In this document: in pieces, positions 49,342 to 59,513 of the stretch
How positions within the stretch are numbered: position 1 is the stretch's first letter
Layout: every line of letters starts with the position of its first letter
Assembly: GCA_963708045.1 (NCBI GenBank)
Contig: OY970181.1
Coordinates: 515,740 to 579,739, forward strand
Direction of reading: 5' to 3'
DNA: 64,000 bases
From: an uncultured bacterium
Lineage (GTDB): Bacteria > Patescibacteriota > Patescibacteriia > CAIQCM01
Notes under the pieces: model-generated
What the model was told of the DNA's origin: nothing
Seen by the model: only the letters and a program-made list of their open reading frames with translations
Database searches by the model: none
Made by a program: the position numbers and the translations under genes

Positions 49342-50319
49342 ATGAAAATCATTATTATTGCCTTATTTTTCGCTTTATTTATTTTAACACGCCCGGTTTT
49401 GGCGGTAACGCCGAAAACGCCGATTTTGGGAAAGGCGGAGGTCGTTAGTTCAACGGAAATTCGCTGGCATTTTGTTAACCGCGACAAAAACGCAGTTGCT
49501 TTTGAACTGTGGGACGTGCTTGGGAGGAGAATTGTAAAGCGGGTGGATGACAAAAAAGCGACGTATATAACCGAGGACAATATTATTCCCGCCGACCCGG
49601 ATCAGGCCTGCGGGCGGTATGTTGTTGCGGTGAATAAAAATGGCGAGCGGTCGTTTGGGCAGGTTATGACATATCCGTGCGTTAGGACGCCGCCAGTGGT
49701 TCCGCCGCCGCCGGAAATTGAAATAAAAGATAATAAGATTATTAAAGTTAATGTGTCATCGGGCGCTAATGACCCAGCAACTTCCATTGGCGTTTACGAA
49801 GCCAAGCGCGGTGTTTGGTTGTCGCCGGAAAATTTATTTGTCGCTGATCCGTTTATGGAGCCAGCTGGTATTTGGGGCGCGGATATGGGGTCGGTGCTAA
49901 TTGGTTTGCGACACAATTCTAGTTATGTTTTTTATTCGCGCGCTCGTTCGGTTACGGGCGAGCTCTCTATTTGGTCAACGCCGGTAATAATTCGGATGCC
50001 GGCGGAAGTGGCTGACCCAGGTGCGCCGGTGCTTGATCGGATTGGCGAGTTAAAAAATTTGCGCGGCGAAAAGCTTGATCAAACTTTTACGGTTAAGTCC
50101 GCGGCGCCGGTTATCGCCGGAATCTTTCGCGGCGCGAACGTAACCGTGGACTTGGACGACCGTCCGTATCAAGCGACTGTTTTTGGAAGCGGGGAGATAA
50201 AAAGTTTTTCTTTCGCGCCTGGGAAAATTGGTTCGGGCTTTCATTATTTGCGCCTTGGCGCGATTGCGAATGGGACTGTAAGTTGGTCGCCGACAATAGA
50301 GTTTTTGATAAAAAAGTAA
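49342..50319 (+). CDS. hypothetical secreted protein
   Basis: Signal peptide (VLAVTP); beta-rich; no known motif. Confidence 0.4.
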   Translation: MKIIIIALFFALFILTRPVLAVTPKTPILGKAEVVSSTEIRWHFVNRDKNAVAFELWDVLGRRIVKRVDDKKATYITEDNIIPADPDQACGRYVVAVNKNGERSFGQVMTYPCVRTPPVVPPPPEIEIKDNKIIKVNVSSGANDPATSIGVYEAKRGVWLSPENLFVADPFMEPAGIWGADMGSVLIGLRHNSSYVFYSRARSVTGELSIWSTPVIIRMPAEVADPGAPVLDRIGELKNLRGEKLDQTFTVKSAAPVIAGIFRGANVTVDLDDRPYQATVFGSGEIKSFSFAPGKIGSGFHYLRLGAIANGTVSWSPTIEFLIKK

Positions 50320-50331
50320 TATAATATAAAA

Positions 50332-52347
50332 ATGCAGTTTAGAGAAATAAAAAACTGGAAAATAAAAACCGGCCCGTTTGTGATGGTCGGGGTAATTGTT
50401 TTTAGTATCTTTTTTTCTTTAATAAAACCCAACGTTGCTTTGGCTCATCCCGACTTGGGTTTGCATGCGGCCTCAATCGTGTGGTTAGACGAAACGCATA
50501 TTCGCGTTACCTACGATTGGTCAACTGCTGATCAAGTCTCGGATTGGGTGACAACAATCGGCGGGGCTATTACTTGGAATTCTGGAAGTTCAACCGTTTC
50601 AGTTGGTGGAGGGTGGGGAGATATACGAGGTATGCAGTGGGTGCGCCCAATTGCGGCCTCGTCGGTCACGGCTCATGCTAAATCTGCGCCGACTTATTTT
50701 ATAAATATGTATACCAATCTTCCGTCTGATTGGTATACAAATCCAAGATGGGATCCAACCCCAGGGCTTGGCACAATCTATTATGACCACCCGCGACAAT
50801 TAGTTGTAAACGGTGTTTCTTATATCGATGAAGCAAGTTGGGATGTTGGTTTGCTTGAGCGAAGTACTTGGTATGATTTTTTATTCACTGCAAGTCCGTC
50901 AGTAATTACAACATGGTCTAGTGTAGCAAATACGGGTGGGGCAACATTCAGCAAGACCGGGTCTTATGATTTAAGCACCGATGGTCGCGTGGGTGTGGGT
51001 GCTTATGGAGTTTCACCAACCGAATGGGGGACGATCGTCATTGAAGGCGAAATTTCATTACCGTCATACACCCTTACCTATACTGCCGGTGCGAACGGTT
51101 CAATTACTGGTTCCTCGCCACAAACGGTTCATCAAAATTTTGACGGCACGCAAGTTACTGCTACTCCTGCCGCGAATTACCACTTCACGAGCTGGTCCGA
51201 CAGTGTCCTTACCGCCGCGCGCACTGATTTGAATGTAGTGGGAGATATAACGGTCACCGCCAACTTTGCGATTGACACCCACACCCTCACCTACACCGCC
51301 GGCGCAAATGGTTCAGTTACCGGTACTAATCCGCAAACCATTAATCACGGCTCCGACGGTACCGCCGTCACCGCCGTTCCCAACTCGGGTTATCGCTTTG
51401 TTGATTGGTCGGATACTTCAATAATAAACCCGCGCACGGACACGAATGTGACAACCAATCTGGCTGTGACGGCTAACTTTATGGCAAACAGACGCCCTCC
51501 AAGCAGCAGTGGCTCATCGGTAGTTCTTTCGCCATCAATCACAATCCGCACACCGGCGAGCGGCGTATCATATAATGCCGACGCAATCGTTGGCCTTGAT
51601 TGGTCATCGGCCAATGGCGCCTTTACTAAATACAAAATTTATTACTCATCGGATAATGGCACAACTTATTCGGCGATTGGCGAAACAACCTCAACTTCGT
51701 TAAGTTGGACTGTTCCCGACGTCGGCACAACGCAAGGAAAAATAAAAGTTGAAGGTTATGATGCCGCGAGAACTCTGCTTGCTTCGGCAACTTCAAACGG
51801 AAACTTTGTCGTGGTCGGCGATGCAATACTGGAATCAGAAGAGGGAACACAACCAACCACAACACCGCCTGTCACCGACTCAACCGCGACCGGAACTTAT
51901 TCTCCCACTGAAGCGCTGGAAAATACTCCCGACATCAATACCGACATGAACCTCACGCTAGTCGCGCCATCACTCTGCACCTCAGGCTCACTCATTAAAG
52001 GTTCGCTTTCTTCAGTTTATTACTGCGGCGCTAATGGCAAGCGTTATGTCTTTGTGAACGACCGCGCTTACTTTAGCTGGTACCAAGACTTCTCAACCAT
52101 TAAAACTATTTCCGACGCCGACCTCGCCTTAATCCCGCTCGGGGGCAACATTACTTATCGTCCCGGCTCCCGAATGATCAAAATCCAATCCGACCCCAGA
52201 GTCTACGTTATTTCTCGTGGCGGCATCTTGCGCTGGGTTAGCTCCGAAGCCATCGCCGCCGCACTCTATGGCGCGAACTGGGCAACAATGATTGACGATG
52301 TCTCTGATGCCTTTTTTGTAAATTATACAGTTGGCGCGCCGATTTAG
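50332..52347 (+). CDS. cell-surface protein with two Listeria-Bacteroides (flg_new-type) repeats
   Basis: Duplicated HTLTYTAGANGS.TG..PQT...DGT.VTA.P...Y.F..WSD ... TANF units; signal peptide/TM at the N-terminus. Confidence 0.5.
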   Translation: MQFREIKNWKIKTGPFVMVGVIVFSIFFSLIKPNVALAHPDLGLHAASIVWLDETHIRVTYDWSTADQVSDWVTTIGGAITWNSGSSTVSVGGGWGDIRGMQWVRPIAASSVTAHAKSAPTYFINMYTNLPSDWYTNPRWDPTPGLGTIYYDHPRQLVVNGVSYIDEASWDVGLLERSTWYDFLFTASPSVITTWSSVANTGGATFSKTGSYDLSTDGRVGVGAYGVSPTEWGTIVIEGEISLPSYTLTYTAGANGSITGSSPQTVHQNFDGTQVTATPAANYHFTSWSDSVLTAARTDLNVVGDITVTANFAIDTHTLTYTAGANGSVTGTNPQTINHGSDGTAVTAVPNSGYRFVDWSDTSIINPRTDTNVTTNLAVTANFMANRRPPSSSGSSVVLSPSITIRTPASGVSYNADAIVGLDWSSANGAFTKYKIYYSSDNGTTYSAIGETTSTSLSWTVPDVGTTQGKIKVEGYDAARTLLASATSNGNFVVVGDAILESEEGTQPTTTPPVTDSTATGTYSPTEALENTPDINTDMNLTLVAPSLCTSGSLIKGSLSSVYYCGANGKRYVFVNDRAYFSWYQDFSTIKTISDADLALIPLGGNITYRPGSRMIKIQSDPRVYVISRGGILRWVSSEAIAAALYGANWATMIDDVSDAFFVNYTVGAPI

Positions 52348-52484: not shown

Positions 52485-53042
52485 ATGCTGACCGAACTTG
52501 CGAATGAAAAAGAGTTGGCTGAACGGGCGACGAAAGACGGTGACGCTTTTGCCGCGCTTTACGATTTTTATTTTCCAAAAATTTGGGCGTACACGATTAG
52601 GCGCGTCGGACACACGGAAACGGCTGAAGATATTGTTTCACAAATATTTTTAAAAATTACCGAAGCTTTGCCGCGCCGAAAAAATAACGCGCCCTTTGGC
52701 GCTTGGGTTTTTCGGATCGCTACAAATACAATCATTGATCATTATCGGGCAAGTGGTCGGCACCGTGAAGAAGAAATCGTTGCCGCGGAAAATATTCCCG
52801 AACGCGGTTTAGCTCCTGACGAATTTTCCGAGGCTAGGCTCGTGTTTAGAGAAATAGAAACAATCCTCGGCGAACTTCCCGAGCGCGACCGACGCATTGT
52901 TCACCTTAAATTTTTTGCCGGCTTAAGTAACGGTGAAATCGCCGTAACGGAAAAAACTAAAGAGGGGAATATAGCAATAATTGTTCATCGGGCGCTTCAA
53001 AAAATACGTAAACAGAGCAAATTTTATGGAAAACTTGAATAA
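52485..53042 (+). CDS. ECF-subfamily RNA polymerase sigma-70 factor
   Basis: Region 2 (YDFYFPKIWAYTIRRVG...AEDIVSQIFLKI) and region 4 HTH (LPERDRRIVHLKFFAGLSNGEIA); TACAAT box 7 nt before the ATG. Confidence 0.85.
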   Translation: MLTELANEKELAERATKDGDAFAALYDFYFPKIWAYTIRRVGHTETAEDIVSQIFLKITEALPRRKNNAPFGAWVFRIATNTIIDHYRASGRHREEEIVAAENIPERGLAPDEFSEARLVFREIETILGELPERDRRIVHLKFFAGLSNGEIAVTEKTKEGNIAIIVHRALQKIRKQSKFYGKLE

Positions 53043-56000
53043 TCAAGACGAAAAAAACTTAAATAGCGAAGAGGTAAAGCGTAATGAAAACACTGGCGGA
53101 GCGTTGGAAGAGATGGAGAGCAAAATCTCCATGCTTATCAACCATAATAATACGGACGCCTCAGACAAATTCCGCGAATCGTTAAAAACGCGGGTACTTG
53201 AGGCGCACGCCAAAAATAATATGCCTCGTTTTTCCGGCTTTAAGAATTTGATCGGATTTTTTTCCGCTCGCCGCTTTTCGTTTGCCATAACGATCGTTCT
53301 CTTGCTCGCGGTCGTCGGCGGTGTTTTGCTTAATGGTTATTTTGGCGGACGCGAACGGAGTATTGCTAAAATTTTTATTAATCCCGCCTACGCCGCCGAC
53401 GACTTTTCACTTGTCTCGCTTGCGGCTGATTCCGCCGGTGTTACTCCCGATTCGGTCTACAAACTCACAAGCAAAGAATCGTTTTCCACGGCCGACATTA
53501 AAGCTGGACTAAGTCTGACGCCAACGATGGAGGTCGGTGTCAAACAAACAGCGGATAAAGAATGGATGATTACGCCGAGTGAAAAATTGCCAGCCAATTC
53601 GCTTTTAAAAATTGCCCTTGCCGCGGCAATAAACGACAACGGAACAATCACGACGCGCGATTTTTCTTGGGCGTTTCAAGTTAAAGATCATTTCCGCGTT
53701 CTTAATTCGCTTCCTGGGAACGCGGCAACCTCGGTCCCGGTGAATACGGGTATAGAAGTAACTTTTAGCCATCCAAACTTAAATGGCTATGAAAAATATT
53801 TTGCCATTAGTCCCGAAGTTAAAGGACGTTTTGAATATCACGCCCGCACCGCCGTTTTTGTGCCAACCGAACCACTCAAGGCTGGTGAGCTTTATACGGT
53901 GACCATTGGCGCTGATCTGGTACTAACCGAATCCACCGAAAAATTGGGCGAAGATTATAAATTTAGTTTTGAAACGGCTAAAGAAACCAAAGACGCTGGC
54001 GGTTATGAAAATTGGTTTGGCGTTAATGAAAAAATGGTGCAATTCAGTTCCGACGAAAGTCCGTTCATTGGTGTTTATGGCGACACCAAGGCGCAAACCA
54101 CGGCTAATGTATATTCGTTTTCTTCGGCCGACGCTTTTCTTGCGGGTATAAATGAACGCAATAAATATCCGCGCTGGACGGAAAAATGGAATAATTATCA
54201 CTATGATGTTTCGGGGCTTGCCAAAGTCACGTCGTTTACGCCAAAAATTGAAACGCAAAATTACGCCAACTTCTTTGTTTTCCCGTCAAAATTGCCGATT
54301 GGTTTTTATCTCACCGAAGTCGCGTATCAAAACAAAACTTTCCAAGTCTGGATGCAGGTGAATGATTTAAACGTTTTTTACAACATTGATATTAACCACA
54401 CGCTGGTTTGGGTAAACCGGATTGGTGGCGTTTCGCCGGCTACCGAGGCGACGGTTTCGGTCGGTGATTTGGTACAAAATGTAAAAACGGACGCTAGTGG
54501 CGTGGCAACGTTTGATATTCCGGCGGCGTATCAAGATGCCAAAAGCAAATATGCCGACCAGCCGCTTTATCTAATTGTTCGCGCGGGCGCCTCAACGATG
54601 ATTACTGATTTTTATCCCGGCGGGAAAACAGCCGCCAGTCGTTGGTCATATTTTTATACCGACCGCCCGCGCTATCAATCAACCGATACGATTCATTTTT
54701 TTGCGATGACTCGGGATCGCGCGAGCGGCATCGCCTCGCCCGGAAAATACTCGGTAATTCTCCGCAAATCCGGTTGGTACGATTATTATTACAACCCGGT
54801 AAAAATTGTTGAAACCGAAGTTGCGCCGGACGCCTACGGCACAATGACGGGCGCGCTTTCGCTTGCCGATTTGCGCCCCGACTACTATGAAGTCGCGCTT
54901 ACGCTTGACGGCGAAACAATTGCGACAAGCTGGGTAAATGTTCTCCCTTATACCAAACCGGCCTACTCAATTTCGGTAACTAACGACCGCGCCGCGGCCT
55001 TCTCGGGCGAACAGATAAATTTTACCGCGACGGCGAAATTTTTTGACGACACGCCGGCCGCCGGAATTAAAATGAAGGTCGTAGACGAATTAGGGATAAA
55101 GATTGGCTCTTTCACGACCGACGAACAAGGACAAATAACTTTTTCTTCAACCCAAGATTACGACGGAACAAAATATTGGCCGCAATGGAAGTATTTTACC
55201 GTTAGTCCAGAGTCGTCGGAGCTTGGCGACATTAGCGGCTCGGCAAACGGCGCTTGGTACGGTCCGCGCGTTTACGGAACAAGCGAAGTTAAGTATCCGG
55301 AAAAAGGCCGCGCCGAATTAAAGATCAAAGTTCGTAACGTTGATATTAACAAAATTAATTTCCCAAATAACGTGCAATGGGATGAAGATTGGCAAGGGTC
55401 GGATCCGGCTGCGGGCATAAATATTTCTGGCGAAGTAATAAAGATTACTTACAACAAGGTTGAAACTGGTACAGCTTATGACTTCATCAACAAAACGTCT
55501 TATAAAACTTATCGTTACGATCGGGTGGAAACAAAAGTTGACACGCTTTCGCTTGTAACTGGCGCGGACGGTATGGCGCGTTACAGTCGCGCGGTTGAAC
55601 CGAACACTTTTTACAACATAAATTATAAAATCAGCGACGCGGCGCATCGCACCGAAGCGCACAACGACGGCTTCTATTATTATGACGGCAATACTTATTA
55701 TCGCGATTATTTCTCTTACGGGGAAAATGCGCAACCGACAATTGAATTTAACACGAGCGACCGTCTGTATTCGCTCGGCGACAAGGTTAAAGCGACGCTT
55801 TCGCTTAACGCTAAGCCGGTTTCCATGGCGCAAACTGACCGCATTCTTTTTGCCAAATACCAAAACGGTCTAAAGAGCTTTGTGGTGCAAGGGAGCCCAG
55901 TTTATGAATTTAATTTTTCCGAAAGCGATGTTCCTAACGTTCAGCTTTTTGCCGCCTGGTGGGATGGAAAAAATTATCACACGGCGCGAACCGACGGCTG

Positions 56001-58620
56001 GTGGGGGATGAGCGACGGCGGCGCGAAATATAAATATACTGATCGCGAACTCACGATTGACGCCGCTTTTGATAAAACGACGTATGCGCCAGGGAGCGAC
56101 GCTAAATTTTCAGTAACGGTTAAAGACAAGAATGGTCGTCCGGTCGCCGCCGCTCTAAATCTTAATTTGGTTGACGAAGCGTATTACGCGATTGCGAATA
56201 GCTCGGCAAATCCGCTCCAAAGCATCTACACGCCGCAATATTCGGGAATCATTGATTCGGCGGAAACGCAAGAACCGCCGCCTTCGGCCACGGCCGGCGG
56301 TGCGGAACGTGGTGGCTGTTTTGCCCCTGGCACGATGATTACGATGGCTGATGGTAGCAAAAAGGCGATTGAAAAAGTTAAAGTTGGCGACAAGGTGGCG
56401 ACACTCGCGAATCCGCTTAACGCCGATGTTGTAACAGGAACAGTTGGCGCGGTTTTTGAGCATACCGCGAATAAAATGATTTCCGTTAACAACGGACTTC
56501 TCAAGGCTACACCCGAACATATGATCTATGCGAGCGGCACTTTTAAAACCGCTGGCGAAATTGCGGTTGGAGATGTACTCCTTGGACTTAACGGGAAAAA
56601 GACGGTTGTCACTTCGGTTAAAGTTGTTTTTGAAAAAATTTCCGTCTACAATTTGCGTGTTGATCCATATCACACCTTTATTGCAAACGGTATCTATGTT
56701 CACAATGACAAGGACGGCGCCGTGCGTCAGAACTTTGTTGATGTCGCGCTTTTTCGCACGGTCACAACCGATAGCGCAGGCAAAGCGACAGTTGACTTTA
56801 AGTTGCCGGATAACGTTACTTCTTGGCGGCTTACGACACAGGCGATTGGTGCTAATCTTTCAGTCGGAATGTCCACACAAAAAATAAAAACCACCTTGCC
56901 GGCTTTTGTTGACGTTACCATTGGTAAGGATTATCTCGTAGGCGATCAGGTTGTTGCTAAACTGCGTTCGTTTGGTACGAACCTTACAGCCACGGACGCG
57001 GTTTCTTACGCTGTTACTTCGGAAGGGCTTGGCAACGCCTCATTTTCTTTTGCAACCGAAGGCAAAGCGTACCGTCCGACCGAAGTTAATCTGCCACCGC
57101 TCACATCGGGAAATTTCAACGTTACCTATTCAATGAAAAGCCAAAAAGGAAATGACGCCGTGCTTTTGCCGCTAAACGTTTCCAAGTCGTTTTTGCGGAT
57201 CAATAAAATCCTTTCATCCACTGATGTTTCGCCCGGGGTAAAGTTTTCTGCGCCTGGCGCAACTGACTCCGTAAAAATTACTTTTGCCGACGCGAGTTCA
57301 ATGAAATTATATCGGCCGCTTTCGGAACTTAGCTGGAGTTGGGGAAAACGCGTTGACCAAACGCTCGCGCATTCGCTTGCCGCCGATTTGCTTCTTAAAT
57401 ACTTTAAAGAAGATTGGCACGAAAATACTTTTGACGGCAGCGCGTATCAGCAAGCTGATGGCGGCATCGCGATTTTGCCTTACGGTTCTTCGGATATGGA
57501 TCTTTCGGCGCGTCTCGCGGCTTTAGCGCCGGAAAAATTTAGCGTCTCGGCGTTACGTCAATATTTTATGGCGGAAATTGATTCCAAGAATGCGACGCCC
57601 GAGACGGTGACTAACGCGCTTTTGGGTTTGGCGTCGCTCGGTGATCCGGTTTTGCCGCGGTTAGAGCTCTGGAAAGATAGAACTGATCTGACAATAGAAA
57701 GCCGCATGCGCGTTGCTCTCGCTCTTTACAAGGTCGGCGCGAACGAAGATGCGCGGATGATTTATAACGATGTGCTAAAGAGCGGCGAAAGTCGCGGTGC
57801 GTATTATCTCTTGTCCGGCAAAGACGAGAACGAAACATTACTGCGCACGGCCTTTTTGGGCGAACTTGCGGCCGCGCTTAATATGCCGGAACGCGACGCG
57901 CTCTGGGCTTACGTTACTGATCATAAATATGATAAAAAAATTGAAGTCCTGACCAACCTTGAAGATTTGTCGTTTGTTATGTTGGCTATCCCAACACTTA
58001 CGCCCGGTCCCTCTAAAGTCGCTTACGAACTTAAGGGAATGAAAAATGAAATTGATCTGAATGGCTGGGGTCAAAAAGTAATCAGACTTCAGGCGTCGGA
58101 ACTTGATAAATTGAACATCACCTCGGTGGAAGGAAAAATCAGCGCGGCGGTTTCTGCGGATGCTTCTATCACCGAAGTTGATCTGGTCGCGAACAAGGAC
58201 GTTTCCATTACCCGATCATATTCGGTGGTCGGCGGCGCCGATAATACAACCGACTTTAAGGACAATGATATTATTCGTGTGACGATTGACGTAAAAATTT
58301 CGCGCAATTCGCCGAGTCGTAATTATCAGGTGACGGACATTCTTCCGGCTGGCTTAATTTCGGCGACAAATGTTTATGACGCGTATCGTCCTTATGACAA
58401 CTATTGGAGCAACCCGTTTGATGTAAACGGCCAGCTTGTTTCCTTTAATGTTTGGAAGTACGGCGATCCGGATAAATATGGAAATTATTCGGAGACGATT
58501 CATTATTACGCCCGAGTAAAAACAAAAGGCAGTTACAAGGCCGAGCCGGCGATTATTCAGGCCTTTTCTGACCCAGGAACGATTAATTATTCTTCGGCTG
58601 GAATCGTAACCGTTAAATGA
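53026..58620 (+). CDS. anti-sigma-like giant membrane protein with alpha-2-macroglobulin-like MG domains and an internal Hint domain
   Basis: ATG 53026 overlaps the sigma gene by 17 nt (the track starts at TTG 52981); ~85-aa cytoplasmic N-region then one TM helix (FAITIVLLLAVVGGVLL); YFYTDRPRYQSTDTIHFFAMTRD resembles the A2M MG-domain motif TDRPIYRPGxTVHF; Hint domain at nt 56317-56706; ends with TGA. Confidence 0.55.
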   Translation: MENLNNQDEKNLNSEEVKRNENTGGALEEMESKISMLINHNNTDASDKFRESLKTRVLEAHAKNNMPRFSGFKNLIGFFSARRFSFAITIVLLLAVVGGVLLNGYFGGRERSIAKIFINPAYAADDFSLVSLAADSAGVTPDSVYKLTSKESFSTADIKAGLSLTPTMEVGVKQTADKEWMITPSEKLPANSLLKIALAAAINDNGTITTRDFSWAFQVKDHFRVLNSLPGNAATSVPVNTGIEVTFSHPNLNGYEKYFAISPEVKGRFEYHARTAVFVPTEPLKAGELYTVTIGADLVLTESTEKLGEDYKFSFETAKETKDAGGYENWFGVNEKMVQFSSDESPFIGVYGDTKAQTTANVYSFSSADAFLAGINERNKYPRWTEKWNNYHYDVSGLAKVTSFTPKIETQNYANFFVFPSKLPIGFYLTEVAYQNKTFQVWMQVNDLNVFYNIDINHTLVWVNRIGGVSPATEATVSVGDLVQNVKTDASGVATFDIPAAYQDAKSKYADQPLYLIVRAGASTMITDFYPGGKTAASRWSYFYTDRPRYQSTDTIHFFAMTRDRASGIASPGKYSVILRKSGWYDYYYNPVKIVETEVAPDAYGTMTGALSLADLRPDYYEVALTLDGETIATSWVNVLPYTKPAYSISVTNDRAAAFSGEQINFTATAKFFDDTPAAGIKMKVVDELGIKIGSFTTDEQGQITFSSTQDYDGTKYWPQWKYFTVSPESSELGDISGSANGAWYGPRVYGTSEVKYPEKGRAELKIKVRNVDINKINFPNNVQWDEDWQGSDPAAGINISGEVIKITYNKVETGTAYDFINKTSYKTYRYDRVETKVDTLSLVTGADGMARYSRAVEPNTFYNINYKISDAAHRTEAHNDGFYYYDGNTYYRDYFSYGENAQPTIEFNTSDRLYSLGDKVKATLSLNAKPVSMAQTDRILFAKYQNGLKSFVVQGSPVYEFNFSESDVPNVQLFAAWWDGKNYHTARTDGWWGMSDGGAKYKYTDRELTIDAAFDKTTYAPGSDAKFSVTVKDKNGRPVAAALNLNLVDEAYYAIANSSANPLQSIYTPQYSGIIDSAETQEPPPSATAGGAERGGCFAPGTMITMADGSKKAIEKVKVGDKVATLANPLNADVVTGTVGAVFEHTANKMISVNNGLLKATPEHMIYASGTFKTAGEIAVGDVLLGLNGKKTVVTSVKVVFEKISVYNLRVDPYHTFIANGIYVHNDKDGAVRQNFVDVALFRTVTTDSAGKATVDFKLPDNVTSWRLTTQAIGANLSVGMSTQKIKTTLPAFVDVTIGKDYLVGDQVVAKLRSFGTNLTATDAVSYAVTSEGLGNASFSFATEGKAYRPTEVNLPPLTSGNFNVTYSMKSQKGNDAVLLPLNVSKSFLRINKILSSTDVSPGVKFSAPGATDSVKITFADASSMKLYRPLSELSWSWGKRVDQTLAHSLAADLLLKYFKEDWHENTFDGSAYQQADGGIAILPYGSSDMDLSARLAALAPEKFSVSALRQYFMAEIDSKNATPETVTNALLGLASLGDPVLPRLELWKDRTDLTIESRMRVALALYKVGANEDARMIYNDVLKSGESRGAYYLLSGKDENETLLRTAFLGELAAALNMPERDALWAYVTDHKYDKKIEVLTNLEDLSFVMLAIPTLTPGPSKVAYELKGMKNEIDLNGWGQKVIRLQASELDKLNITSVEGKISAAVSADASITEVDLVANKDVSITRSYSVVGGADNTTDFKDNDIIRVTIDVKISRNSPSRNYQVTDILPAGLISATNVYDAYRPYDNYWSNPFDVNGQLVSFNVWKYGDPDKYGNYSETIHYYARVKTKGSYKAEPAIIQAFSDPGTINYSSAGIVTVK
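56317..56706 (+). other. Hint / mini-intein-like domain (130 aa) embedded in the giant protein
   Basis: Block A CFAPGTMITMADGS, block B TPEH, block G HTFIANGIYVHN; the residue after the terminal Asn is Asp, not Cys/Ser/Thr. Confidence 0.6.
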
Positions 58621-59513
58621 CAAAGAAAAGAACAATAATTTTGTTTTTTGCCGCCGTCGCTTTTTTTGCGGCGGCGGCTTTGGGATTTTTGTTTTTTAAA
58701 AAAACAGAACAACCAATAATGCAAACGGCAAAAAATAATTATCAACGCATTCCGATTCTGGATATTTTTTACGATAAGGAAAATTTTGTTAATGCCGAGG
58801 CAATGGCCAAAGACACAAAGACCGAAGTTGGCGTAAAAGCCGTGGTCGTGCCGCACCACCTGCTCGCATCGCGCCTTGTTGCCGATGCCCTTGCGCGCGC
58901 CAAGGGGAGTAATTATTCGCGGATTGTGATTGTGGGGCCGAATCACGACGACCGCGGCGCTGATGTTGTTACTTCGTCGGCGATTGAATACGATACGCCG
59001 GTCGGCGTGGTTTTGCCCGACGAAGAAAAAATAAATTTGTTTAGAACAGCTTTTGCTTGCCGCGCGGGCAGTGACGTATTTTTAGGTGAACATTCCATTG
59101 GTGCCATCGTGCCGTTTGTGGCCGAAGCGTTTCCAAACGTAAAAATAATTCCCATCATTATTTCGTCACACGCGGGTGACCTTGATGCTCGTAAACTCGC
59201 AGATTGGCTTCGTCGTCTTCCGGCAGATACGCTTGTGATTTTTTCCGTTGATTTTTCTCACTATAAGACCGAGGCAGAGGCCGATGTTTATGACCAAGAA
59301 ACTGCGTCCGCGCTTATGAGTCGTGACAATTCTAAAATTGAAGGCTGGGGGAATGAACACATTGACTCGCCGTTTACAATCGCGACGATGTTGCTTTATG
59401 CCGAAAAAATCGGCGCCAATATCAACATTGTCGCCAACAAAAACGCCAACGATTTTCTGTCACAAAAAGTAGATTCAACAACGAGCTATTTTGAGATAGT
59501 GGCGAGCAGATAA
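58617..59513 (+). CDS. Memo-like protein (MEMO1 / AmmeMemoRadiSam system protein B family) with an N-terminal membrane anchor
   Basis: VVPHH...IVIVGPNHD...GEHSIGAIVPFV...FSVDFSHY match the Memo family metal-site motifs; ATGA overlap with the preceding gene. Confidence 0.6.
   Translation: MTKKRTIILFFAAVAFFAAAALGFLFFKKTEQPIMQTAKNNYQRIPILDIFYDKENFVNAEAMAKDTKTEVGVKAVVVPHHLLASRLVADALARAKGSNYSRIVIVGPNHDDRGADVVTSSAIEYDTPVGVVLPDEEKINLFRTAFACRAGSDVFLGEHSIGAIVPFVAEAFPNVKIIPIIISSHAGDLDARKLADWLRRLPADTLVIFSVDFSHYKTEAEADVYDQETASALMSRDNSKIEGWGNEHIDSPFTIATMLLYAEKIGANINIVANKNANDFLSQKVDSTTSYFEIVASR

Follow-up and report, generated by a model that had tools for sequence, protein, structure and literature searches.

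Our analysis showed that a gene for an alpha-2-macroglobulin (A2M)-like protein, carried on a 64,000-nucleotide stretch of contig OY970181.1 from an uncultured Patescibacteriota bacterium (hereafter the window), contains a 130-residue Hint domain at positions 56317 to 56706 of the forward strand. By every criterion of sequence and predicted structure that we examined, this is a type-A bacterial intein-like (BIL) domain. Since a well-conserved BIL domain stands exactly at the usual site of the A2M bait loop, the host protein, by analogy with characterized BILs, probably cuts itself at this bait-equivalent site without needing a protease. The features concerned are listed below; a slash in a motif marks a junction of the Hint domain.

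53026–58620, + strand: A2M-like host gene (open reading frame translation; 1,864 residues, predicted to be membrane-anchored, one cysteine)
53275–53331, + strand: predicted transmembrane helix, residues 84–102 (hydrophobicity scan; best 19-mer FSFAITIVLLLAVVGGVLL, score 2.72)
56227–56316, + strand: bait-like linker, residues 1068–1097 (poorly conserved and predicted to be disordered; ends in a conserved GAERGG, whose last Gly is residue −1)
56317–56706, + strand: type-A BIL/PT-HINT Hint domain, residues 1098–1227, 130 residues (translation, Pfam, NCBIfam, PDB search, AlphaFold2 model)
56317–56319, + strand: Cys1 codon TGT, Cys1098 (DNA read; start GG/CF; presumed nucleophile of the N-S acyl shift)
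56509–56520, + strand: block B, T-P-E-H, residues 1162–1165 (DNA read; Thr and His conserved in 100% of 36 Hint-bearing relatives)
56701–56706, + strand: terminal His-Asn of block G, residues 1226–1227, CAC AAT (DNA read; Asn is the presumed cyclising residue)
56707–56712, + strand: +1 Asp (GAC) and +2 Lys (AAG) (DNA read; no +1 nucleophile)
56746–56958, + strand: A2M domain (PF00207, MG7-type; Pfam residues 1241–1311, E=6.5e-9; starts 13 residues past the Hint domain)

An initial annotation, made from the letters of the window, had proposed an intein-like Hint domain at this place, and the translation, the profile and structure searches and the model all bear it out. The 130 residues are free of stops and in frame within the host open reading frame (ORF). 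They read CFAPGTMITMADGS...TPEH...HTFIANGIYVHN or, in a longer rendering of the ends, CFAPGTMITMADGS...KATPEHMIY...VYNLRVDPYHTFIANGIYVHN, with Asp-Lys-Asp directly after the terminal Asn. Residues are numbered here from the ATG at 53026; the range 1113–1242 given earlier was counted from the TTG at 52981. The domain has the size of a mini-intein, as had been noted, and no homing-endonuclease insert was found in it. Blocks A, B (TPEH) and G are present as annotated, but the motif HTFIANG, which had been assigned to block G, belongs to block F, and block G is IYVHN.

The best Pfam family was PT-HINT (PF07591), with E=3.8e-16 and 60.0 bits on a 160-residue piece and 54.4 bits on the whole protein, against a cut-off of 27.7. 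Three further families, Hom_end_hint, Hint and Vint, passed their own cut-offs, Intein_splicing and Hint_2 did not, and the NCBIfam model intein_Cterm scored 25.9 bits against a cut-off of 15.6. In the PDB sequence search the best match was the BIL of Clostridium thermocellum (C. thermocellum; 2LWY, E=1.4e-13, about 35% identity), followed by BIL2 of BUBL1, a polyubiquitin-like locus in Tetrahymena thermophila (6Y75/6TMM, 4e-10), while class-1 inteins reached only about 1e-4. The AlphaFold2 (AF2) model of the domain had a predicted local distance difference test score (pLDDT) of 96.4. Its TM-score was 0.90 to 6Y75, 0.89 to 2LWY, 0.80–0.82 to class-1 inteins and 0.79–0.81 to Hedgehog, and Foldseek gave a probability of 1.00 against BILs, inteins and Hedgehog alike. 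Hint homology is therefore strong, and the nearest families are BIL and PT-HINT, not canonical inteins. Block F of inteins usually carries Asp and His (PMC7765530). Here the Asp position holds Asn (VYN), as it does in 36 of 36 relatives and in 2LWY.

By the published definition (PMC4031507, PMC7765530), a type-A BIL is an intein-like domain that ends in His-Asn, has no C-extein nucleophile and is sited in a variable part of a bacterial protein that is itself not conserved. The His1226-Asn1227 end of the domain agrees with the trait that parts type A from type B, and its location is a disordered, poorly conserved linker of a predicted exported A2M-like protein. No further Hint domain was found in the 64-kb window, so that this one is the sole copy. 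A 182-residue ORF with a GTG start lying antisense to it (56155–56703, − strand) was rejected as spurious, being opposite a strongly supported coding region.

Host protein and bait-equivalent linker

The host ORF begins at TTG 52981 or at ATG 53026 and runs through to 58620 on the + strand. The ATG is the likelier start, and it is the one used by an identical 1,864-residue database protein (P0001). This protein is present in assemblies from three sources (NCBI, ENA and Logan), one of its contigs being 1.19 Mb long. The domain order by Pfam is Big_5, MG2/bMG3, A2M_BRD (residues 907–1055), Hint, A2M/MG7 (residues 1241–1311) and bMG10. The A2M and bMG10 matches were both above cut-off, and those of A2M_BRD (21.7 against 22.7), MG2 (27.2 against 32.8) and bMG3 (34.3 against 34.9) were just below it. 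One transmembrane helix was predicted, with about 83 residues N-terminal of it, and the topology would be that of a type II anchor, these residues being cytoplasmic and the ectodomain outside. In the JGI metagenome annotation of a relative, P0002, the A2M and Hint Pfam names stand side by side.

The host is a member of the A2M/thioester-containing protein family, minus the CXEQ thioester. A scan for C.EQ found no such motif among 30 family members, and the host has exactly one cysteine, which is Cys1098 of the Hint domain; a classical thioester is therefore impossible in this protein. The Hint nucleophile is likewise the single cysteine of the relatives P0002 and P0004. No significant alignment was obtained between the TED-like region of the host and the thioester-bearing relatives P0031–35. 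The sequence RVDQT of the host resembles CVEQT, but by eye only, and this was not used as evidence; what decides the point is the count of one cysteine.

The linker preceding the Hint domain is variable in our alignments, yet its AE.GG is conserved. In an AF2 model of residues 895–1345 the Hint domain (pLDDT 82–96) lies between beta-sandwich domains on low-confidence linkers, with pLDDT 35–66 for about 40 residues before it (model residues ~161–203) and below 50 for about 10 after it. Foldseek matched the flanking domains to C3, C4, C5, ECAM and A2M structures. When the Hint domain was deleted and the host aligned with human A2M, Ala1232 fell on Thr730 (AVRQNF against TVRKYF), in agreement with the Pfam A2M boundary, and the insertion point fell between residues 725 and 726 of human A2M, inside the bait region. 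Previous studies have placed the human A2M bait at residues 690–728, a slot filled by the anaphylatoxin domain in complement proteins (PMC8267569), and the disordered bait of ECAM at Arg923–Leu942, within a BRD inserted in MG8 (PMC4498604). The analogy that had been drawn with the chain processing of A2M and complement proteins thus holds as a positional match, extending to the anaphylatoxin-domain slot.

Conservation and distribution among relatives

We pooled 63 A2M-type Hint domains from 12 homologues, 27 Hint-bearing loci (drawn from 80 loci of species-representative genomes) and the 50%-identity cluster representatives of an exhaustive HMMER search. All 63 start with Cys-Phe, end in His-Asn and are preceded by Gly at −1, which is part of a Gly-Gly in 58. 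The +1 residue is Asp in 35, Glu in 14, Gln in six, Ala in six, Ser in one and Thr in one, so that the nucleophile is absent from 61 of the 63. In the first 12 Hint-bearing homologues, whose hosts are 27–72% identical, only D, E, Q and A occur there; S, T and C are absent. The initial annotation had called the +1 Asp non-canonical and had held that it would be a sequencing error if orthologues uniformly had Ser, Thr or Cys there; they do not, and the Asp is genuine. Turning its GAC codon into any codon for Ser, Thr or Cys takes two substitutions, and this distance, together with the +1 distribution in the relatives, excludes a sequencing error.

We considered whether the domain could be a canonical class-1 mini-intein whose +1 residue has been misread through a sequencing or assembly error, or has recently suffered an inactivating mutation. 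Blocks A, B, F and G are intein-like, the intein_Cterm match is above cut-off, and two relatives do have +1 Ser or Thr. But the identical protein was independently assembled in NCBI, ENA and Logan data, the host is no conserved housekeeping enzyme, the site is a disordered linker and the nearest relatives are BILs. The +1 distribution refutes this explanation, whose probability we regard as negligible. The two relatives with a potential +1 nucleophile are L028 (Patescibacteria metagenome-assembled genome [MAG] DAIRGB010000008.1), with VHN/SKGGG, and P0147, with VHN/TTGAEKGGG; judging from these junctions, canonical splicing may occur in them.

Across 36 Hint-bearing relatives, Cys1, Thr65/His68, Asn112, Thr120 and His129/Asn130 (domain numbering) are invariant, and the mean pairwise identity is 46.5% for the Hint domain against 33.4% for the host. 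We read this pattern as suggesting that selection continues on the catalytic apparatus of the domain. Hint-like domains that have lost their activity are known in other contexts, and the present one might accordingly be a domesticated fold without self-processing, serving as a structural spacer or binding module. This is very unlikely, because it is exactly the catalytic residues that are kept while the hosts are only about 33% identical: Cys1, the block B Thr and His, the penultimate His, the terminal Asn and Gly −1 are invariant across 36 to 63 relatives.

Relatives with an empty site, which it had been proposed to look for, were found. The Hint domain is missing from 18 homologues in the first set of 30 and from 66 in the larger set of 102; these have a Gly-rich linker, GAE.GG-(E)GGG-.R..F, at exactly the Hint column. 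All Bacillota and Chloroflexota members are Hint-less, and the Hint-bearing members all come from Patescibacteria-type MAGs. The genome of the window is itself a Patescibacteria genome: among named sequences, its ribosomal protein S2 has its nearest matches in Ca. Uhrbacteria and Patescibacteria, at 57–64% identity. In a neighbour-joining (NJ) tree of the hosts with the Hint domain removed, 36 of 36 Hint-bearing proteins fell inside one clade of 58, with 22 Hint-less proteins interspersed. Parsimony on this tree required seven state changes (4–10 across 59 bootstraps). Both states occur within named groups: in Uhrbacteria, L020 has the domain and L030 lacks it, and in Peregrinibacteria the same is true of L006 and L057. 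Hint and host divergences are correlated (Mantel r=0.80, reached in 0 of 2,000 permutations). In our reading of these sequences, the Hint domain would have been acquired long ago, descended mostly vertically and been lost several times. The NJ tree of the Hint domains themselves placed from 5 to 71 foreign tips within the A2M-type clade across bootstraps, and does not separate one gain from several.

In P0147, P0011, L016 and L043 the AE.GG motif is repeated 3′ of the Hint domain, as AEKGC/Hint/TTGAEKGGG or AEGGG/Hint/AEKGGG. This flanking direct repeat at the protein level may be a trace of the entry of a cassette into a Gly-rich linker. At the DNA level, no target-site duplication, repeat or compositional anomaly was found around the Hint domain in the window.

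The exhaustive HMMER search with the Hint domain returned 44,768 proteins at E<=1e-3, of which 822 reached E<=1e-30. The top single-domain scores, 167–185 bits, are without exception those of A2M-type proteins about 1,800 residues long. The next scores, at most 149 bits, come from unrelated secreted or surface proteins (Laminin_G_3, PKD, Big_9, cadherin-like, pilin-like, Tim44-like). The initial annotation had described the host as a variable secreted protein and not a housekeeping one; its variable, exported nature and the company of these closest non-A2M Hint domains conform to the BIL pattern (PMC7765530). Non-A2M relatives (among P0042–P0188, for example P0057, P0044 and P0043) often have 2–14 tandem Hint domains, whose junctions read GGG/CFL...VHN/KGGG, VHN/KGGG/CFL or VHN/KGCF.

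Proposed self-excision and fate of the flanks

Our favoured explanation, to which we give about an even chance by analogy with studied BILs, is that the Hint domain is an active type-A BIL autoprocessing domain that excises itself and leaves a two-chain protein. The host would be exported as a type II membrane protein, and folding of the Hint domain would bring the Gly1097-Cys1098 and Asn1227-Asp1228 bonds together. Cys1098 would then attack the Gly1097 carbonyl in an N-S acyl shift, with Thr1162 and His1165 assisting, to give a Gly1097 thioester. No branched intermediate would form, because the +1 Asp is not a nucleophile and block F has Asn where inteins usually have Asp. Cyclisation of Asn1227, assisted by His1226, would cut the C-terminal junction, and the thioester would be resolved mainly by water. 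The Hint domain (about 14 kDa) would thus be released from a membrane-anchored N-fragment (residues 1–1097) ending in Gly-Gly and a C-fragment (residues 1228–1864, 637 residues) comprising MG7, the TED-like region and bMG10. This protease-independent cut would fall at the site of target cleavage in A2M and of maturation and activation in complement proteins. A minor fraction might be religated by amine attack.

The two-chain outcome is favoured because N- and C-cleaved products predominate in the experimental record of type-A BILs (PMC7664689, PMC4031507), and full conservation of the catalytic residues among such divergent hosts supports maintained activity. Several points weigh against it. 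Type-A BILs are able to ligate their flanks as well (PMC4031507). The clade also contains, scattered among the Hint-bearing proteins, relatives that have a continuous linker and no Hint domain, and such patchy presence is easiest to understand if the mature products with and without the domain are equivalent, that is, spliced. Simple hydrolysis gives no reason for a Lys near the C-terminal junction, where 62 of 63 A2M-type domains have one. Constitutive cutting of the bait would also be expected to trigger a classical A2M, so that the logic of a latent trap may not apply here.

These points lead to the possibility, which we consider appreciable but clearly the less probable, that the domain is a splicing BIL. 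The thioester would be captured in cis by the alpha-amine of Asp1228 (peptide) or the epsilon-amine of Lys1229 (isopeptide), and a continuous protein would be restored with a linker like that of Hint-less relatives, making the element functionally near-neutral. The initial annotation had held that standard splicing is impossible and that cleavage must follow. It was right about the missing +1 nucleophile, but “impossible” is too absolute, since type-A BILs can ligate by an amine. A freed amino group attacks the thioester in type-A BILs according to PMC4031507, which cites Dassa 2004 and Aranko 2013, and BUBL BIL2, our top structural and second sequence match, makes a Lys isopeptide (PMC8616854). 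Lys occurs within +1 to +3 in all of the 63 A2M-type Hint domains except P0147, which has Thr at +1, and is found at +1 in 171 of the 239 next-closest, non-A2M Hint domains; at the aligned position it is present in just one of 66 Hint-less linkers. The linker left after excision, GAERGG-DKDGAVR, would also resemble the empty sites, GAE.GG-GGGG.R. Against splicing, cleavage is reported to dominate in BILs (PMC7664689), and A-type BILs are even said to be unable to ligate (PMC7765530). The Lys may instead come from a host motif, AE[K]GG, since AE.GG is repeated after the Hint domain in some members. No homing endonuclease is present that could account for the persistence of a neutral element, and a Gly-rich linker should tolerate its imprecise deletion; the domain has nevertheless stayed, with higher conservation than the host around it.

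A further alternative is that an amine from outside the protein, on a Lys of an attacking protease, on another envelope protein or in the cell wall, resolves the thioester at Gly1097, so that the N-fragment would become covalently coupled to a target, as in cholesterol transfer by Hedgehog or conjugation by BUBL. The lack of C.EQ across the family set and the Hint cysteine being the only one in the host agree with such a role. The N-extein ends in R-G-G/C as does the ubiquitin-like domain upstream of BUBL BIL2, which conjugates its N-extein to Lys of other proteins (PMC8616854), and the Hint domain is placed exactly where attacking proteases engage A2Ms. The case is purely analogical, however; thioester-less relatives without the domain evidently function without a thioester, no sign of regulated thioester formation was seen in the sequence analysis, and an unprotected thioester at the cell surface would mostly hydrolyse. 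We regard this external transfer as improbable. The broader idea that the Hint domain replaces the lost CXEQ, its Gly-Gly thioester being captured either by the +2 Lys or by a lysine of a target, is also unlikely. Of the three fates considered for the flanks (lasting separation, religation through an amine, transfer to a lysine), the first, with self-excision to two chains, is the one that we hold most probable from the sequence.

Neighbouring genes, novelty and comparison with known systems

The host gene overlaps a gene on either side.

52485–53042, + strand: ECF-type (extracytoplasmic function) sigma-70 gene (Pfam Sigma70_r2/r4; overlaps the host ATG by 17 nt)
58617–59513, + strand: Memo-like (PF01875) gene (Pfam Memo, E=3.2e-25; its start overlaps the host stop codon)

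A sigma gene was found directly upstream in 15 of 26 Hint-bearing and 8 of 50 Hint-less loci by phmmer, which gives a lower bound. The N-terminus of the host (53026–53331), a cytoplasmic part and transmembrane helix beside the sigma gene, has the layout of a sigma/anti-sigma pair, which suggests an anti-sigma/A2M fusion. No anti-sigma domain was found in the host protein of the window by Pfam; a relative, P0025, gave a weak sub-threshold match to zf-HC2 (E=0.019). Farther upstream are a 671-residue protein with divergent InlB B-repeat (Flg_new_2) domains (50332–52347, + strand), with a gene that L001, a relative of 72% identity, likewise has upstream, and a 325-residue protein without Pfam match (49342–50319, + strand).

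The Memo-like gene is directly downstream in 55 of 77 assessable loci (21 of 29 Hint-bearing, 34 of 48 Hint-less), and the A2M-like/Memo pair is kept across Patescibacteria, Bacillota and Chloroflexota. Known bacterial A2M genes pair with PBP1c or belong to a yfaS/mag cluster, and a described operon of the A2M-like/Memo type is not known to us from bacteria. The overall G+C content of the 64-kb window is 46.3%, and no tRNA gene (ARAGORN) or Rfam family above gathering score was found in it, the bacterium being one with a small genome.

BIL domains have been known since 2003, and their biological roles have stayed vague (“post-translational variability”, toxin release). The chemistry considered here is known from type-A BILs, while the host and the site are new. 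In the library searched, no paper was found that connects A2M to inteins or to Hint domains, nor any that connects Hint domains to Patescibacteria. Here a BIL lies at the bait/activation linker of the A2M/complement proteins, which is the best understood of the regulatory sites in this much-studied superfamily, and has kept all its catalytic residues there across a deep, phylum-level radiation of Patescibacteria. This gives BILs a concrete and testable candidate role, the protease-independent maturation or triggering of a macroglobulin, as well as a natural example of an autoprocessing module set in a bait loop. The Hint-less orthologues of the same lineages provide built-in controls. Compact 130-residue, single-cysteine domains with Gly-Gly and Lys flanks, predicted to cleave themselves, may also suit protein engineering. 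Capture by lysine, if true, would be a new and second independent covalent-capture chemistry for the A2M superfamily.

The domain is not a class-1 intein. It shares with class-1 mini-inteins (Mtu RecA, Ssp/Npu DnaB) the fold, blocks A, B and G, Cys1, the His-Asn chemistry and a size without endonuclease. Unlike them, it has no +1 Cys, Ser or Thr and has Asn for the block F Asp, and it interrupts a Gly-rich linker of low pLDDT, not a conserved active site, in a non-essential surface protein; the +1 nucleophile, the block F Asp and a housekeeping host are all lacking. Pretoxin-HINT domains (PF07591; Rhs/CdiA/MafB-type), the best Pfam family, free the Hint-distal C-terminal part of a secreted protein by autoproteolysis. 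The present domain, in contrast, is internal, about 640 residues from the C-terminus, with A2M/MG7 and bMG10 downstream. A polymorphic toxin was considered and rejected: Pfam found no toxin domain in the 637 downstream residues and there is no immunity gene, the next gene being Memo-like, so that this is not a functional pretoxin Hint.

With the Hedgehog Hog/Hint domain it has in common the G/CF scissile motif, the lack of a +1 nucleophile and, as proposed here, a thioester intermediate that is resolved by some nucleophile that is not a side chain of the C-extein. It differs in having no sterol-recognition region and in keeping the terminal His-Asn and a C-extein, so that C-terminal cleavage is possible too. 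BUBL1 BIL2 (6Y75/6TMM) is similar in its R-G-G N-extein end before Cys1 and in its lack of a canonical +1 nucleophile. In BIL2 the epsilon-amine of a Lys attacks the thioester and forms an isopeptide with the C-terminus of the N-extein (PMC8616854). Such a resolution is conceivable here given the conserved downstream Lys, with Lys1229 cast as the nucleophile only by analogy. BIL2 is eukaryotic and cytoplasmic with ubiquitin-like flanks, whereas our domain has macroglobulin flanks in an exported bacterial protein.

The closest known relative, C. thermocellum BIL4 (2LWY; Amitai 2003, Dassa 2004, Aranko 2013), has the same Hint fold of about 130–138 residues, Cys1, TxxH and His-Asn, and likewise no +1 nucleophile, a block F Asn and a variable secreted bacterial host. 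The host here differs in being of the A2M family, with the domain in its bait-equivalent linker. Further, the present domain is not sporadic but has been conserved through a deep clade and, in our reading, passed down mostly vertically, and its flanks are strongly conserved (GG at −2/−1, Lys at +2); its activity is predicted. In A2M, C3, C4 and C5 the same linker between domains is broken, immediately ahead of the point where the MG7-type domain begins with VR..F.D, and the cut is made by an external protease (bait cleavage, or furin-type processing and anaphylatoxin release). In the present protein there is no CXEQ thioester to unmask, a 130-residue domain would be removed, and the cut would be autocatalytic.

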